Source: Escherichia phage vB_EcoM-UFV06
Sequence record: OP555980.1
DNA: 64,000 bases
Direction: 5' to 3' (one strand)
Shown here: positions 9,120 through 64,000 of the stretch, one piece after another
Layout: every line of letters starts with the position of its first letter
Numbering within the stretch: the first letter of the stretch is position 1
Position numbers and translations under genes: made by a program
The notes under the pieces: generated by a model
Database searches by the model: none
Seen by the model: the letters and a program-made list of their open reading frames with translations, nothing else
Told to the model about the DNA's origin: nothing

Positions 9120-9590
9120 TTAATCATGTTTCCACACCCCATCGGTATTTGACCAAAGTCGCTGATTATCTGATCCTCGCCACAGCTTTTTAGTCGGAAG
9201 ATTTTTCTCATACTTCCCATCAATAATAACATCAACATATTTAAGCATTTCTAGTTGTTTAATATCTTCAAACTTATATCCTGTCCACAACCAAATGCTT
9301 TTATTAGGATAAAGATTTTTAATAGTTTGAACCACAGAGTGAATCACGTCTCTGTTATCAGGATAGAGAGGGTCACCTCCAGTTATAGTTAATCCTTCTA
9401 TATAATCATTATTCAAACATTCAATTAATTGTTCTAGTGTTTCACCAGTGAATGGAACGCCATTTCTAGCATTCCATGTTGATTTATTATAACACCCTTC
9501 ACATTTATGCAAACAACCTGTAACGAAAAGAACGACCCTGCATCCAGGGCCATTCACAAAATCACAGGGATAAAATCTATCGTAATTCAT
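9120..9590 (-). CDS. nrdG: Anaerobic ribonucleotide reductase activating protein (radical SAM)
   Basis: 156 aa; CLHKCEGC = Cx3Cx2C radical-SAM cluster motif; ATGA overlap with the nrdD stop. Confidence 0.9.
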   Translation of the reverse strand: MNYDRFYPCDFVNGPGCRVVLFVTGCLHKCEGCYNKSTWNARNGVPFTGETLEQLIECLNNDYIEGLTITGGDPLYPDNRDVIHSVVQTIKNLYPNKSIWLWTGYKFEDIKQLEMLKYVDVIIDGKYEKNLPTKKLWRGSDNQRLWSNTDGVWKHD

Positions 9591-11404
9591 TGGTGTTTAA
9601 CCCTATGCATGATTTCTTTATTTTTGCCGAGATTAAATCCGCGTTCGTTCGGATTTCCCAAATAACCACATGTTCTTCTTATTGTGTTCATCTTTTTAGG
9701 ATCAGTTTCTCCACAAATAGAACAAACAAATCCGTTTTCAGTAGGAGTCATTTCATGGGTACTTCCACATGTAAAACATTTATCTACTGGCATATTAACA
9801 CCAAAATAATCTAAATGTTGTGCAGCATAATCCCATACGGCCTCAAGACCCTTTAAGTTATTTTTCATATCAGGAAGTTCAACATAAGAAATGTGGCCGC
9901 CTGTCGCAATGAAATGATATGGTGCTTCGCGAGAAATCTTTTCAAACGGAGTAATATTTTCTTCTACTGAAACATGGAAACTGTTAGTGTACCAACCTTT
10001 ATCGGTAACATCCTTTACACTTCCATATTTTTCGGTATCAAGTTTACAGAAGCGATAACAAAGGTTTTCAGCAGGAGTAGAATACAAACTAAAAGCAAAC
10101 CCAGTTCTTTCAGTCCACTGTTTAAGACGAGCATTCATTTTAGTTAAAATTTCCTGTCCAATATCACGACCGACAAGAATATTCAATTCGTGAATACCAA
10201 TGTATCCTAGAGACACTGAACTTCTGCCATTTTTAAATAACTCAATTATATCGTCATCAGGTTTAAGACGAACCCCGAATGCACCTTCTTGATAAAGAAT
10301 AGGAGCAACAGTCGCTTTAACTCCTTTTAAGGAACTAATTCTACACATCAAAGCTTCAAAACATAAATCCATTCGTTCATTGAATAATTCAACAAATTTC
10401 TGTTCATTGAACTGTGTTCCAATATAAGAATCTAATGCGATACGAGGAAGATTCAGTGTTACAACACCGAGATTATTACGTCCATCAAGAATTTCATTGC
10501 CAGTCGAATCTTTCCATACGCTCAAGAAACTACGACAACCCATTGGAGAAACAGGAATAGATGAGCCGGTGATAGCTTTATTGTTCTTAGCCGAAATAAT
10601 ATCAGGATACATTCTTTTGCTTGCGCACTCTAGAGCAAGCTGTTTAATATCATAGTTCGGATCGTCTTTATAAAGATTAACACCTTCTTCAACGAACATA
10701 ACAAGCTTAGGGAAAATAGGAGTTATCCCATCACGACCAAGACCTTTAATACGATTTTTCAGAATTGCTTTCTGAATCATTCGTTCAGTCCAGTCAGTTC
10801 CTGTACCAAATGTAATTGTTACAAAAGGTGTTTGTCCGTTTGAGCTAAAGAGAGTATTTACTTCATATTCATAAGCTTGGAATGCATCGTATACATCTTT
10901 TTCTGTTTTAGATTGAGCATAATTCAACGCATCAGCGATTTGCCATTTTTCTGCATCCTCAATATGTTTTGCATAGGTGCGTTTAACATAAGGAGAAAGT
11001 ACTTTATCTACATTAGCAAAAGTCGTTCCGCCGTATTGATGGGAAGCAACCTGTGCAGTAATTTGTGCCATAATTGCAGTAGCAACACCGATTGATTTAG
11101 GAGTTTCAATCTGTGCATTACCAAGCTTAAATCCGTTCTCAAGCATTCCTTTTAAATCTACTAAACAACAATTAGTAAATGGAAGAGCAGGGGAATAATC
11201 AATATCGTGGAAATGAATAATTCCGCTTTCATGCGCTTTCATAATAAAAGACGGGACCATATTTTTGGCAATGTGTTTAGACACAATACCAGCCATAAGG
11301 TCCCGTTGAGTTGGAAAAACACGAGAATCTTTATTAGCATTCTCGTTTAAAAGGTCTTTATTAGTTTTATGAATCAATCCTTCAATTTCTTTTTCAATTG
11401 TCAT
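9587..11404 (-). CDS. nrdD: Anaerobic ribonucleoside-triphosphate reductase, uninterrupted
   Basis: 605 aa continuous ORF; C-terminal glycyl-radical motif RRTCGYLG and CxxC...CxxC zinc site. Confidence 0.95.
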   Translation of the reverse strand: MTIEKEIEGLIHKTNKDLLNENANKDSRVFPTQRDLMAGIVSKHIAKNMVPSFIMKAHESGIIHFHDIDYSPALPFTNCCLVDLKGMLENGFKLGNAQIETPKSIGVATAIMAQITAQVASHQYGGTTFANVDKVLSPYVKRTYAKHIEDAEKWQIADALNYAQSKTEKDVYDAFQAYEYEVNTLFSSNGQTPFVTITFGTGTDWTERMIQKAILKNRIKGLGRDGITPIFPKLVMFVEEGVNLYKDDPNYDIKQLALECASKRMYPDIISAKNNKAITGSSIPVSPMGCRSFLSVWKDSTGNEILDGRNNLGVVTLNLPRIALDSYIGTQFNEQKFVELFNERMDLCFEALMCRISSLKGVKATVAPILYQEGAFGVRLKPDDDIIELFKNGRSSVSLGYIGIHELNILVGRDIGQEILTKMNARLKQWTERTGFAFSLYSTPAENLCYRFCKLDTEKYGSVKDVTDKGWYTNSFHVSVEENITPFEKISREAPYHFIATGGHISYVELPDMKNNLKGLEAVWDYAAQHLDYFGVNMPVDKCFTCGSTHEMTPTENGFVCSICGETDPKKMNTIRRTCGYLGNPNERGFNLGKNKEIMHRVKHQ

Positions 11405-28791: not shown

Positions 28792-29057
28792 TAGTATTTT
28801 TCCTCTGGTTGGAACACAGCACGACAAGCCCACATACTGGCTTCTTTGAGTTTCGTTTTAGCAATAGTTAACTGATCGAGGCTTTCGGCGTAATTCTTCG
28901 CGAGTTCATCATCTTCACAGCTATCAAATGCTTCCCAAAATTCATCGTATAAAGCATCAAAGATAAGTCCTAAACGAACTTCAGCGTCTTTAATAGCATT
29001 TACTTTACCGATTTTTTCGTCGGTATGTGGCTTATAACCTTTAATATCTTCAATCAT
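28791..29057 (-). CDS. Hypothetical protein (about 88 aa)
   Basis: ORF. Confidence 0.35.
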
Positions 29058-29271
29058 ATTTGACTTCCTCACCAGTACATAAATCGTATTCAACTAAACG
29101 AATAGGTTCATGAATGCCATATCCCTGAACAGAAATTTCTGTCGTAGGATAAATTCCATCAATATCACCCATATTCCAGGCTTCGTTAAATTGCTGTTCG
29201 CCTGAATTACTAAACCACTCGGCGAAAGCATTTAGCACATCTTTAGAACCTTCAATAATTATCTTTGCCAT
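29050..29271 (-). CDS. Hypothetical protein (73 aa)
   Basis: ORF. Confidence 0.35.
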   Translation of the reverse strand: MAKIIIEGSKDVLNAFAEWFSNSGEQQFNEAWNMGDIDGIYPTTEISVQGYGIHEPIRLVEYDLCTGEEVKYD

Positions 29272-29633
29272 TACAAACTCTCGGTAAAGGTACGAGCGAT
29301 AACGTCGCGCTGCTGTTCCGGAGTCAGAGAGTTAAAGCGAACTGCATAACCGGATACACGGATGGTCAGCTGCGGATATTTTTCCGGATGCTTAACTGCA
29401 TCTTCCAGAGTTTCACGACGCAGAACGTTAACGTTCAGGTGTTGACCACCTTCAATTTTAACTGTAGGCTGTTGCTCAATTTCAATTTCACGGGCATGCA
29501 AACCGTAGAAAATTTCTGGGTCTACAAAAGAGTCCTCTTTAAAAGTTTTAGAGACAATAATTCGTGCTTGAATACCATCTTCAAAATAAATAGTACCTTT
29601 ATGCGTGCCTTCAAGAATTTGATATGCTTTCAT
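29271..29633 (-). CDS. Autonomous glycyl-radical cofactor (GrcA/YfiD-like)
   Basis: C-terminal about 60 aa ([59 protein letters not shown]) match my recollection of E. coli GrcA including the RVSGYAV glycyl-radical motif; the 3-prime half is visibly more GC-rich than its flanks. Confidence 0.85.
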
Positions 29634-29640
29634 ATAAACC

Positions 29641-29970
29641 TCAATTAGAAAATAAATTTATCCAAGATTGTTCTTTAATTAAAAATGGCTCAGAATCATA
29701 TGCCATTAAACTCTGCGTGATTAGTCCTTTAAAAGGTCCATCAATAAATTCCATGGTAAAATATGGAATTTTATTCATTAGCCGTGCGTTAGGAGCAGTA
29801 CATAAAACTCTGCATCCTTTGAATACGCCTTTTTGTAATTTGTATTGCTTAGGATAAAATTCGCTCAAGACGTTGTTATTTGCCAAAATTTCAAAATGAT
29901 TCACCAATTTATTTTTAATAGTTTTTGGCGAAAAATAAAGATATTCGAAAAGTTGCGTGTCTGTCATCAT
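29641..29970 (-). CDS. Hypothetical protein (about 110 aa)
   Basis: Probable ATG at 29970 abutting the downstream gene. Confidence 0.4.
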
Positions 29971-35340: not shown

Positions 35341-35348
35341 TATTTATA
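35341..35348 (-). promoter_or_regulatory. Late promoter box TATAAATA
   Basis: Perfect TATAAATA on the minus strand about 36 bp upstream of the ATG at 35304. Confidence 0.55.
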
Positions 35349-35350
35349 CT

Positions 35351-35381
35351 AAAAAGCCCCAACCTTTTGGTCGGGGCTAAG
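35351..35381 (-). terminator. Intrinsic terminator, copy 2 of the 31-bp direct repeat
   Basis: Minus-strand 10-bp stem, AAAA loop, then UUUUU. Confidence 0.7.
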
Positions 35382-35429
35382 CCTTGCGGCAACCTTGTCG
35401 GGGTTCCACCTGCTAAGGCAAGTGTTTGT

Positions 35430-35521
35430 ACGAAACGCCGGGATTCGAACCCGGTTATTAAGCAGTTGACGCTACTCAATATTTTTAAAAGGCCATATCT
35501 CGACCATATCCGAACGTTCCG
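35430..35521 (-). ncRNA. Candidate tRNA-like/structured small RNA
   Basis: Canonical T-arm ccggg-TTCGAAT-cccgg with an acceptor-like 7-bp pairing, but no clean D or anticodon arm; T4 is reported to encode stable RNAs near its tRNAs. Confidence 0.3.
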
Positions 35522-35685
35522 TCAAAAACGCTACTCGGCTTACGGCAAAGATATTTCCTCGAATCGATAATTCGGTGCGCCGTTTCTGCTGTGATAGTAA
35601 AGAGCCAGAACACAGTAAAACTGTGGGAGGAAACTATACTCCAGGGAACATCAGTCCGACGACTTACCGGTAGCGACCCGGTTTC

Positions 35686-36036
35686 TTAGTATTCTTTTAA
35701 AGCATCAATTTGTTCACGGCGTTTACGCCATAAATCAATTGCTTCATAAGCAGATTCAGCATTTCGAATTAGCCGACATTTATATAAAGACTTGTGATTT
35801 TGGTATTGCGTAGATAATGGAATTTTATCTAAAAGGTCTTTGCGTTCAAAGTATTCGTAACCATCTAAACCAAATGAACGATTTTTGAGAAATTGCCAAT
35901 GACCATATTCGTTTTCGACATAAACATAATCTGCATGCTGATAAAGCAAATTAATTACACGTTCAGAAATAACAGTATCATTATGATTAAAATAGAATGT
36001 TAAATCATGAACTACTAAATAAACATTACCTTTCAT
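35686..36036 (-). CDS. Hypothetical protein (116 aa)
   Basis: ORF immediately downstream of tRNA-Arg. Confidence 0.45.
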   Translation of the reverse strand: MKGNVYLVVHDLTFYFNHNDTVISERVINLLYQHADYVYVENEYGHWQFLKNRSFGLDGYEYFERKDLLDKIPLSTQYQNHKSLYKCRLIRNAESAYEAIDLWRKRREQIDALKEY

Positions 36037-36054
36037 ATTTTCCTCACTTATAAT

Positions 36055-36130
36055 TGGTCGAGGCAGTAGGGATCGAACCTACGACCCAGGACTTAGAAGG
36101 TCCTTGCTCTTCCTTCTGAGCTATGCCCCG
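36055..36130 (-). tRNA. tRNA-Arg (anticodon UCU)
   Basis: Hand-folded cloverleaf; anticodon loop CUUCUAA; CCA encoded. Confidence 0.8.
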
Positions 36131-36134
36131 TAAT

Positions 36135-36210
36135 TGGGGTGACCGATGGGAGTCGAACCCATGACTACGAGAATCACAATCTCGAGTTCTACCAACTGAA
36201 CTACGGCCAC
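36135..36210 (-). tRNA. tRNA-His (anticodon GUG)
   Basis: Cloverleaf; anticodon stem CGAGA/UCUCG, loop UUGUGAU; discriminator C73; no encoded G-1. Confidence 0.75.
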
Positions 36211-36324
36211 ATTAATACCTACTCCAACAATCATGATGTCTTCACACGAAATTAAGAGAAGAGTGATCAGTTCAACCCCTATAATCGCGTCAAGTAGATA
36301 TTAATGTGACAGTTGTCACAAATT

Positions 36325-36399
36325 TGGCGGACGTGATAGGATTCGAACCTATAACCAATCGCTTAACAGGCGATCGCTCTGCCATTGAGCTACACATCC
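36325..36399 (-). tRNA. tRNA-Asn (anticodon GUU)
   Basis: Cloverleaf; anticodon stem AUCGC/GCGAU, loop CUGUUAA. Confidence 0.75.
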
Positions 36400-36403
36400 A
36401 AAT

Positions 36404-36490
36404 TGGTGGGGAGTGATGGAGTCGAACCACCCGAGTCGCAATGACAATGAATTTACAGTCCACACCGCTACCTCTACGGGATAACTCCCC
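36404..36490 (-). tRNA. tRNA-Tyr (anticodon GUA), class II, probable
   Basis: 87 nt with long variable arm; GACUGUAAAU anticodon region as in bacterial tRNA-Tyr; anticodon stem has two G-U pairs. Confidence 0.55.
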
Positions 36491-36496
36491 TTAATT

Positions 36497-36571
36497 TGGT
36501 GGCCCTGGGTGGAATTGAACCACCATCTGGCGATTATGAGTCGCTTGCTTGAACCTTCCAGCTACAGGGCC
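36497..36571 (-). tRNA. tRNA with anticodon CAU (Ile2 or Met)
   Basis: Cloverleaf; loop CUCAUAA; T4 tRNA-Ile is reported to use a modified CAU-type anticodon. Confidence 0.7.
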
Positions 36572-36572
36572 T

Positions 36573-36648
36573 TGGTGCTGATTGACGGAATCGAACCGCC
36601 GACATCCTCATTACAAGTGAGGTGCTCTACCTACTGAGCTAAATCAGC
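36573..36648 (-). tRNA. tRNA-Thr (anticodon UGU)
   Basis: Cloverleaf; loop CUUGUAA. Confidence 0.8.
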
Positions 36649-36653
36649 AAAGC

Positions 36654-36743
36654 TGGCGGAGGCGATAGGATTTGAACCTATGAATCGCCGGAGCGACTGC
36701 CGGTTTTCAAGACCGGTGCATTAAACCACTCTGCCACGCCTCC
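36654..36743 (-). tRNA. tRNA-Ser (anticodon UGA), class II
   Basis: 90 nt; anticodon stem CCGGU/ACCGG, loop CUUGAAA; long variable arm. Confidence 0.8.
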
Positions 36744-36745
36744 AG

Positions 36746-36819
36746 TCTCCATACAAGGATTTGAACCTTGGACCTCCTGATCCCAAATCAGGCGCTCTAC
36801 CAAACTGAGCTACACGGAG
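36746..36819 (-). tRNA. tRNA-Pro (anticodon UGG)
   Basis: Cloverleaf; loop UUUGGGA; CCA not encoded. Confidence 0.75.
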
Positions 36820-36829
36820 TAAATTAAAT

Positions 36830-36903
<74 letters not shown>

Positions 36904-36908
36904 AAATT

Positions 36909-36995
36909 TGGTGCGAGAAGTGGGACTCGAACCCACAAGGAAATCATTCCGCAGCATTTTAAGTGCTGTGCCTTTACCAATTTGACCATTCTCGC
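36909..36995 (-). tRNA. tRNA-Leu (anticodon UAA), class II
   Basis: 87 nt; anticodon stem CAGCA/UGCUG, loop CUUAAAA. Confidence 0.8.
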
Positions 36996-36996
36996 G

Positions 36997-37069
36997 CTGG
37001 GAATAAAGGATTCGAACCTTTGCATCTAGCAGTCAAAGTGCTATGCCTTACCAACTTGGCTAATTCCCA
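36997..37069 (-). tRNA. tRNA-Gln (anticodon UUG)
   Basis: Cloverleaf; anticodon stem UAGCA/UGCUA, loop CUUUGAC; CCA not encoded. Confidence 0.75.
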
Positions 37070-63069: not shown

Positions 63070-64000
63070 ATGACTTTATTATCTCCGGGCATTGAGCTCA
63101 AAGAAACTACGGTTCAAAGCACCGTGGTTAATAACTCTACTGGTACAGCAGCTTTGGCCGGTAAATTCCAGTGGGGTCCTGCTTTTCAGATTAAACAGGT
63201 TACAAATGAAGTAGATTTAGTTAATACTTTTGGTCAACCAACCGCTGAAACTGCTGACTATTTTATGTCTGCGATGAATTTCTTGCAGTACGGAAATGAC
63301 TTACGAGTAGTTCGTGCTGTTGATAGAGATACCGCTAAAAACTCATCTCCGATTGCTGGTAATATTGAATACACAATTTCTACCCCAGGTAGTAACTATG
63401 CAGTTGGAGATAAAATCACGGTCAAATATGTTTCAGATGATATTGAAACTGAAGGTAAAATTACTGAAGTAGACGCAGATGGAAAAATTAAGAAAATTAA
63501 TATTCCTACTGCAAAAATTATCGCTAAAGCAAAAGAAGTCGGTGAATATCCAACACTAGGTTCTAACTGGACTGCAGAAATTTCTTCATCTTCTTCCGGT
63601 TTAGCTGCAGTAATAACTCTTGGAAAAATTATTACTGATTCCGGTATTTTATTAGCTGAAATCGAGAGCGCTGAAACTGCTATGACAGCAGTTGATTTTC
63701 AGGCAAATCTTGAAAAATATGGAATTCCAGGAGTAGTAGCTCTCTATCCAGGCGAATTAGGCGATAAAATTGAAATTGAAATCGTATCTAAAGCTGACTA
63801 TGCGAAAGGCGCTTCTGCATTACTCCCAATTTATCCAGGTGGTGGTACTCGTGCATCTACTGCTAAAGCGGTGTTTGGATATGGACCACAAACTGATTCA
63901 CAGTACGCTATTATAGTTCGTCGAAATGATGCTATTGTTCAAAGCGTTGTTCTTTCAACTAAGCGTGGTGAAAAAGATATTTACGATAGTAACATCTATA
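63070..64000 (+). CDS. 18: Tail sheath protein gp18 (5-prime partial, runs off the window)
   Basis: ATG at 63070; N-terminus MTLLSPGIELKETTVQSTVVNNSTG as recalled for T4 gp18. Confidence 0.9.
   Translation, partial: MTLLSPGIELKETTVQSTVVNNSTGTAALAGKFQWGPAFQIKQVTNEVDLVNTFGQPTAETADYFMSAMNFLQYGNDLRVVRAVDRDTAKNSSPIAGNIEYTISTPGSNYAVGDKITVKYVSDDIETEGKITEVDADGKIKKINIPTAKIIAKAKEVGEYPTLGSNWTAEISSSSSGLAAVITLGKIITDSGILLAEIESAETAMTAVDFQANLEKYGIPGVVALYPGELGDKIEIEIVSKADYAKGASALLPIYPGGGTRASTAKAVFGYGPQTDSQYAIIVRRNDAIVQSVVLSTKRGEKDIYDSNIY

Follow-up and report, generated by a model that had tools for sequence, protein, structure and literature searches.

The vs.6 gene of Escherichia phage vB_EcoM-UFV06, a grcA homolog whose 3' half appears to be overwritten by the grcA gene of the host

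How did a T4-like phage come to carry a gene of which one half looks like phage DNA and the other half like the DNA of its host? This question is raised by an open reading frame (ORF) of Escherichia phage vB_EcoM-UFV06 (OP555980.1), located at 29271..29633 on the reverse strand of a 64,000-nucleotide (nt) stretch, the whole of which is called the window here. According to the ORF list it has 363 nt, an ATG start and 120 amino acids (aa). An earlier sequence-only reading had taken it for a GrcA/YfiD-like glycyl-radical gene in which a recently captured host fragment was fused to an unrelated phage N-terminus. Our analysis confirmed the gene family and agreed with a recent capture of host DNA in the 3' half, but the fusion had to be abandoned. 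We consider it highly probable that the gene is a Tequatrovirus vs.6 encoding a spare part for pyruvate formate-lyase (PFL), and that its 3' half has been overwritten by host grcA recurrently and in a host-specific manner.

Identity of the gene and its two halves

Judging from nucleotide identity and gene position, the ORF is the ortholog of T4 vs.6 (UniProt P13316, GRCA_BPT4, formerly Y06I). It was 100% identical at the nucleotide level to phage vB_EcoM-UFV09 and 97.8% identical to T4 63557-63919 (AF158101), which is annotated as vs.6, and it lies between vs.7 and vs.5, upstream of regB, as a member of this orthologous group does. The gene order vs.7-vs.6-vs.5, followed by vs.4, vs.3 and regB, was the same in T4, UFV09 and the window. 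The encoded protein differs from T4 Vs.6 at two residues (Q54P and R73H), and exactly the same protein has been recorded on 167 contigs under the name 'autonomous glycyl radical cofactor'. Nothing of substance distinguishes the gene from that of T4, except that the tract of the window, lacking the CGT to CAT change of T4, is one substitution nearer to E. coli. The gene and its biochemical role are thus already known, and it adds no new kind of system.

The domain content agreed with this assignment. Pfam PF01228 (Gly_radical) matched aa 60-101 with 67 bits (cut-off 22.2), and the product is a stand-alone small protein with a C-terminal glycyl-radical domain, within the range of about 120-130 aa typical of GrcA/YfiD. 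The sequence-only reading had noted that about 60 C-terminal residues, including RVSGYAV, match E. coli GrcA; in fact, residues 61-120 (EGGQHLNV...TFTESL, with RVSGYAV at residues 92-98) were 100% identical to residues 68-127 of E. coli GrcA/YfiD. Among solved structures, E. coli YfiD/GrcA itself matched best (PDB 6OWR, E=9e-42) and the C-terminus of PFL came next (PflB, residues 697-759, E about 5e-26), so that both RVSGYAV and the PFL-like C-terminal helix of GrcA/YfiD are present. Translation and alignment to PDB 6owr and to PFL 1cm5 placed the predicted radical glycine, Gly95 of RVSGYAV, at 29349..29351 (-), corresponding to G102 of E. coli YfiD.

At the nucleotide level, gene nt 181-350 (29284..29453 (-)), which encode the structured glycyl-radical domain, were 100% identical to E. 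coli grcA over 170 consecutive bases, and all four mismatches to E. coli grcA fell in the last 12 nt of the gene. With blastn, gene nt 179-363 showed 97.8% identity in every one of 5,426 complete E. coli genomes. When the whole 64-kb window was searched by megablast against all E. coli genomes, a match of 97.4% over 29267..29455 (-), which covers the grcA 3' end plus 3-4 nt, was found in 5,426/5,426 of them, and no other chromosomal match appeared. Identity to host grcA is therefore higher than for the other phage genes, which was the test that the sequence-only reading had set. Furthermore, both the window and T4 had the E. coli state at 21/21 sites that distinguish E. coli grcA from that of K. 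variicola. These comparisons support the view that the phage obtained its GC-rich 3' half from E. coli at a time that is recent on an evolutionary scale. An assembly artefact was rejected because the tract occurs in more than 640 independent phage records, and a transfer in the opposite direction, from phage to host, was rejected as well.

The composition of the 3' half was atypical in every measure that we calculated. The GC content of 29271..29455 was 0.486 vs 0.351 for the window (z=3.1); only 0.74% of 185-nt segments were as GC-rich, and all the others lay at 35347..36873, around a tRNA cluster. GC at third codon positions was 0.45 in the tract, in the top 0.08%, vs a mean of 0.228 for the ORFs of the window. 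The codon index, derived from the 66 long ORFs of the window itself, was 0.51 in the tract (bottom 0.46%), compared with a mean of 0.695 and with a typical 0.715 in the 5' half. Codons shunned elsewhere by the phage, namely CTG, CCG and CAG, were used in the tract (CTG for 5/6 Leu and CCG for 3/3 Pro). The host-like composition described in the sequence-only reading for 29271..29475 is therefore real, but it ends at about 29455, not at 29475.

The 5' half (gene nt 1-178, aa 1-59, 29456..29633 (-)) was typical of the phage in both GC content and codon index. Its product had been regarded as unrelated to GrcA. However, when the N-terminal halves alone were compared by BLASTP, aa 22-60 aligned to GrcA 28-67 with 35% identity over 40 aa (E=5e-6), and the NCBIfam model of GrcA covered aa 20-120. 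The phage N-terminus is thus homologous to the disordered half of GrcA that binds cleaved PFL (cPFL).

The tract in other phages and its origin

By tblastn, the gene was present in 1,591 phage records, belonging to Tequatrovirus, Mosigvirus, Jiaodavirus, Slopekvirus, Pseudotevenvirus, Krischvirus, Aeromonas phages, T5-like phages and a jumbo Yersinia phage, and its 3' half was phage-like in most of the lineages that carry it. The full-length gene with a phage-type, AT-rich 3' half was found in CC31 and its Enterobacter-phage relatives, Slopekvirus, Pseudotevenvirus and Krischvirus, whose 3' halves reached 72-84% identity to any sampled bacterial grcA. For example, the 3' half of the Enterobacter phage CC31 had a GC content of 0.41, and its identity to the bacterial grcA genes sampled, about 80 in number, was 75-80%. 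CC31-type genes are likely to represent the ancestral state.

With CC31 as the phage-type reference, gene nt 64-180 contained five E. coli-like and 36 CC31-like sites, and the sequence after nt 181 contained 31 E. coli-like and no CC31-like sites (Fisher p=3e-15). The gene therefore has a supported breakpoint, with one segment phage-like and the other host-like, as in other mosaic auxiliary genes. The GrcA homology of the N-terminal half, together with the full-length phage-type genes in relatives, points to homologous replacement inside an old phage gene and not to a fusion.

The two genera of E. coli phages that share the tract provided a measure of its history. Between Tequatrovirus and Mosigvirus, 17-21 of 183 positions differed in the 5' half and 3-7 of 180 in the 3' half. 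When the window was compared with Mosigvirus LF82-8, the numbers were 19/183 in the 5' half vs 2/170 in the tract (p=1.8e-4), and 13/60 vs 2/56 at third codon positions (p=0.005). In gene nt 181-350 no fixed difference separated the two genera, private singletons being the only variation, and the flanking genes were much more diverged between them.

A counterpart with a different donor was found in phages of Klebsiella. The grcA gene of K. variicola matched 108 phage records at 95-99% over grcA nt 202-369 or 202-374; among the matches listed, almost all were Klebsiella phages, mostly Jiaodavirus (JD18, KP1 and the Roth series). The Klebsiella-type junction at grcA nt 202 is the same as that of the E. 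coli match (grcA nt 200-384). Mismatches were counted over gene nt 181-342 (162 nt), in which E. coli and Klebsiella grcA have 20-21 differences: Tequatrovirus and Mosigvirus had 0-2 mismatches to E. coli grcA and 20-22 to the Klebsiella alleles; five of six Jiaodavirus sequences had 19-22 and 1-5, respectively; and the sixth, KP179, had 22 and 12-13. The 5' halves of Tequatrovirus and Jiaodavirus were both AT-rich and differed from each other at 47-50 of 180 sites. Roth01 had the Klebsiella state at 20/21 of the E. coli/K. variicola diagnostic sites, and the breakpoint counts in JD18 shifted from 9 to 40 before the junction to 36 to 5 after it (p=3e-11).

In metagenomes, a scan with a 132-nt pattern of the Jiaodavirus tract gave no matches, and a 60-nt pattern did give matches. 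The scan recovered 23 Klebsiella-like gut contigs (GC 0.56-0.58) with one dominant allele (L184 type), and the Jiaodavirus-like phage contig L188 differed from this dominant gut allele at 1/162 positions. The Jiaodavirus phages were split by host allele, some reading LTSEQQ (the K. variicola type) and others LTPEQQ (the dominant gut, L184 type), and the positions at which their tracts stop were not uniform either. As for the deviating Klebsiella phage KP179 (L003), about the first 100 nt of its tract were Klebsiella-like, and its changes were mostly towards A/T; the tract may be older, decaying, or from an unsampled donor species. Another Klebsiella phage, vB_Kpn_AM_K4 (L182, PP355766.1, 288,685 bp), carried a Jiaodavirus-type vs.6 beside tRNA genes, in a neighbourhood different from that of other Jiaodavirus genomes (about 166 kb), and its record may be a concatenated or chimeric assembly.

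Patches of a third donor type were observed in a clade of about 150-kb phages from human metagenomes. Contig L114 of this clade shared with Haemophilus grcA an exact patch of 56 nt, or about 70 nt with one mismatch, and Haemophilus-identical patches were present in L114 and L115 and absent from sister contigs. The clade (IMG/VR contigs L112-L117 and L124) has genomes of about 130-154 kb where complete and encodes a GrcA of 130-137 aa with a more GrcA-like N-terminus (SIWLIEDNKARCLVAKE); its members are probably Pasteurellaceae phages.

Several explanations of the host-identical tract were compared. The sharp break in composition and identity at about gene nt 179 is what would be left behind if a piece of host grcA had been captured in a single illegitimate event and joined to an unrelated N-terminal phage sequence to form a new chimeric gene, and the low score of the protein on the GrcA equivalog model, which is due to the N-terminal half, could be read in the same way. 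We regard such a fusion as very unlikely, since the N-terminal half does align to GrcA, the 120-aa architecture recurs in other T4-like genera together with a 3' half of the phage type, vs.6 was found in 6/6 T4-like genomes (Nolan et al., 2006; PMC1524935), and Jiaodavirus reuses the junction with a different donor. That the nucleotide identity reflects extreme purifying selection or convergence under codon or mRNA constraints, without any DNA transfer, has a practically negligible probability. The 60 residues are strongly constrained, and their aa sequence is identical in Slopekvirus and Pseudotevenvirus; however, those phages make the same 60 aa as the window at a nucleotide identity of only about 83%, so protein constraint does not force DNA identity. 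In addition, the tract uses the phage-avoided Leu and Pro codons, and the 21/21 matched sites that separate E. coli from Klebsiella are nearly all synonymous. This explanation was rejected because the synonymous-site pattern contradicts it.

A single transfer deserves more attention, either into one Tequatrovirus or Mosigvirus ancestor or as one recent event that spread from phage to phage, in both cases followed by ordinary divergence and no further exchange with the host. Within the E. coli phages, all of which have the left junction in common, parsimony favours one event, and the private singletons show that the tract does mutate. However, the lack of fixed differences in 170 nt stands against a divergence of about 10% in the 5' half and against still more diverged flanking genes, and the Mosigvirus RB69 is reported to be unable to recombine with T4 (PMC6024577). 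Such a transfer would also leave unexplained the Klebsiella-type tracts of Jiaodavirus with their two allele types, and the Haemophilus patches. We therefore consider a single transfer improbable. Taken together, the Tequatrovirus/Mosigvirus pattern and the Klebsiella and Haemophilus cases favour repeated conversion by the host over a single old event, as far as aligned sequences can tell.

Some observations weigh against recurrent, host-specific overwriting of a PFL spare part. Spread from phage to phage could be part of the reason why Tequatrovirus and Mosigvirus have the tract in common, and the host-identical tract was not found in CC31-related Enterobacter phages, Slopekvirus, Pseudotevenvirus or T5-like phages. 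As a negative control, Salmonella grcA was compared with the phage collection; its best match was 83.8% and no Salmonella-type tract was present, and because Salmonella grcA reaches only this value with any phage, the donor in the E. coli phages is Escherichia specifically. The NCBIfam GrcA equivalog TIGR04365 aligned to aa 20-120 with 154.9 bits, below its cut-off of 170 bits (E. coli GrcA scores 233.9 bits), because the N-terminal half has diverged. The base-by-base reading covered about 15 phage sequences, and the database counts include many near-identical isolates, which are not independent. The DNA used as Klebsiella grcA query was that of L175/L176, with the label 'K. variicola' taken from the protein source name, and the L184-type contigs were assigned to Klebsiella from their GC of 0.56-0.58 and a distance of 1 aa from named Klebsiella proteins. 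That conversion is 'ongoing' is deduced from sequence patterns, and a fitness benefit during infection is a prediction.

In spite of these points, recurrent overwriting by host grcA accounts for the observations as follows. T4-like phages would long have carried a full-length, phage-adapted grcA homolog. In Tequatrovirus and Mosigvirus, E. coli grcA would have replaced the 3' 170-185 nt by a homologous recombination that resembles gene conversion. Klebsiella grcA would have supplied such a replacement independently in Jiaodavirus, and Haemophilus grcA would have done so in patches in the uncultured phage clade. The exchange probably continues, because about 170 bp of perfect host homology is a ready substrate for recombination; in T4, recombination with short stretches of homologous DNA in the cell is efficient. 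With less confidence, we lean towards a more general view: in at least three phage-host pairs, the radical half of the phage gene would remain tied to its host counterpart and be overwritten repeatedly by the allele of the current host, through homologous recombination with the chromosome of the infected cell. Repeated overwriting would let the tract evolve in step with the host gene and not with the phage genome.

The ends of the tract may have different causes. On the left, the tract would stop where the homology between phage and host collapses, which coincides with the border between the disordered and the structured domain. On the right, the stop codon of vs.6 overlaps the start of vs.5 in TAATG at 29269..29273, where E. 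coli has TAAGG, and selection on the translation of vs.5 may hold the host sequence back. The boundary zone on this side (gene nt 351-360, 29274..29283 (-)) contains the four mismatches to E. coli and is mosaic in related phages: nine Tequatrovirus and Mosigvirus sequences had five variable sites there and only singletons in the preceding 170 nt, and the end-points of the tract differed among phages. Just upstream of TAATG, the window has GAGAG and E. coli has GAAAG. The overlap together with GAGAG suggests translational coupling, with a Shine-Dalgarno-like element inside the end of the host-derived tract.

If the repeated overwriting is true, T-even-type phages, commonly regarded as almost closed to the DNA of the host, would undergo recurrent gene conversion by it in nature, and this conversion may be adaptive in that the spare part continues to fit the host PflA and PflB. 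Such a system would offer a clean, experimentally tractable case for asking at what frequency lytic phages recombine with the host DNA that they degrade and how much homology is needed, and it bears on whether auxiliary metabolic genes stay compatible with the host by conversion rather than by selection alone. In practice, the tract causes cross-matches between phage and host in read mapping, host prediction and contamination screens. A host-tracking mosaic of phage grcA at the nucleotide level was not described in the searchable literature, a search in which key older papers were not included.

Predicted role of the protein

The activity of the T4 protein has been studied. Wagner et al. (2001), as related in PMC8683613, showed that PFL cut by oxygen is reconstituted by YfiD as well as by T4 Y06I once PFL-AE has activated them. 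Residues 1-60 of YfiD are disordered and help binding to cleaved PFL, and residues 61-127 form the structured domain. The sequence-only reading had pointed to this spare-part activity in a T4 homolog, and the activity is indeed published; the homolog, however, is not a separate relative, the ORF being the ortholog of T4 vs.6 itself. By analogy with the T4 protein, which differs at two aa, the host activase PflA is expected to place the radical on Gly95 of the UFV06 protein. The C-terminal domain would then plug into host PflB that has been cut by oxygen at its own radical glycine and would bring the activity back. Such a spare part may keep PFL-dependent fermentation alive in the infected, transcriptionally shut-off cell in microaerobic or low-oxygen habitats, for example in the gut.

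At codon 73, the T4 reference has CAT (His), and E. coli GrcA and the other phages with an E. coli-type tract that were read have CGT (Arg). Since T4 alone among those phages has CAT there, one radical-domain residue of the Y06I protein used in the biochemical work is not that of the common natural allele.

It had also been suggested that the protein could rescue the phage's own anaerobic reductase. NrdD (9587..11404 (-)) and NrdG (9120..9590 (-)) are indeed both encoded in the window, NrdD too is cleaved by oxygen at its glycyl radical, and a role of Vs.6 as a spare part for NrdD, activated by NrdG, is therefore conceivable. The authors of PMC8683613 speculate about spare parts for other glycyl radical enzymes. 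However, a BLASTP comparison of Vs.6 with the NrdD of the window gave a best E of 2.6, which did not fall at the NrdD C-terminus; the cysteine cluster before the RRTCGY motif of NrdD (CFTCGS...CSICGE) has no counterpart in Vs.6; and the radical domain of Vs.6 is identical to that of host GrcA and closely matches PflB 697-759. The chance that Vs.6 serves NrdD, alone or in addition to PFL, is very slight in our view, and the rescue of NrdD was rejected as unsupported for lack of sequence similarity.

Known parallels and gene neighbourhood

Compared with E. coli GrcA/YfiD, the phage protein has an identical C-terminal part of 60 aa, the same architecture and a conserved N-terminal ARxIVxK...ED motif. 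In contrast, its N-terminal half is only about 35% identical and seven residues shorter, and the gene lies in the early-gene region on a phage transcript and does not adjoin ung, as it does in E. coli. The vs.6 gene of CC31 is an orthologous 120-aa gene of the same N-terminal family and neighbourhood, and those of Slopekvirus and Pseudotevenvirus are comparable; it differs by its phage-type 3' half (GC about 0.41) without the host-identical tract. The nearest evolutionary parallel is provided by psbA and psbD of cyanophages, for which intragenic recombination between host and phage has been described (Sullivan et al., 2006; PMC1484495). There too, a metabolic gene of a T4-like phage swaps segments with the host copy, leaving a mosaic with patchy GC. 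Unlike in psbA and psbD, the exchange in phage grcA is limited to a single tract the size of one domain, with a junction that is used again and an identity to the present host species that reaches 100%; the phages concerned are of the T-even type, which break down the DNA of the host and carry modifications in their own.

On the two sides of vs.6, the vs.7 homolog lies upstream at 29641..29970 (-), with coordinates from the UFV09 annotation and in agreement with that of T4, and the vs.5 homolog lies downstream at 29050..29271 (-), according to the ORF list and the T4 and UFV09 annotations, its ATG overlapping the vs.6 stop. A promoter/terminator scan around vs.6 gave 12 promoter-like sites, where 10.3 were expected.

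Among the IMG/VR contigs labelled viral, L122 and L163-L173 carried bacterial-type genes and are probably prophage flanks or misclassified bacterial DNA. L122 encodes a full GrcA with a MITGIQITKA N-terminus and has a 3' half 91% identical to Yersinia grcA; L163 contains a pflB-like gene with the PflB C-terminus, and so, to judge from their matches, do L164-L173.

The tRNA cluster mentioned above, at 36055..37069 (-), consists of 11 genes (Arg, His, Asn, Tyr, Met, Thr, Ser, Pro, Gly, Leu and Gln). T4 has eight tRNAs, and the UFV06 isolate thus carries more. About 36340..36525 of this cluster gave the only other megablast match of the window to E. coli records, at 82-89% identity and with no chromosome among them; the targets were tRNA-Tyr/Thr/Asn genes on 258 plasmid records, of about 72-120 kb among the matches listed.

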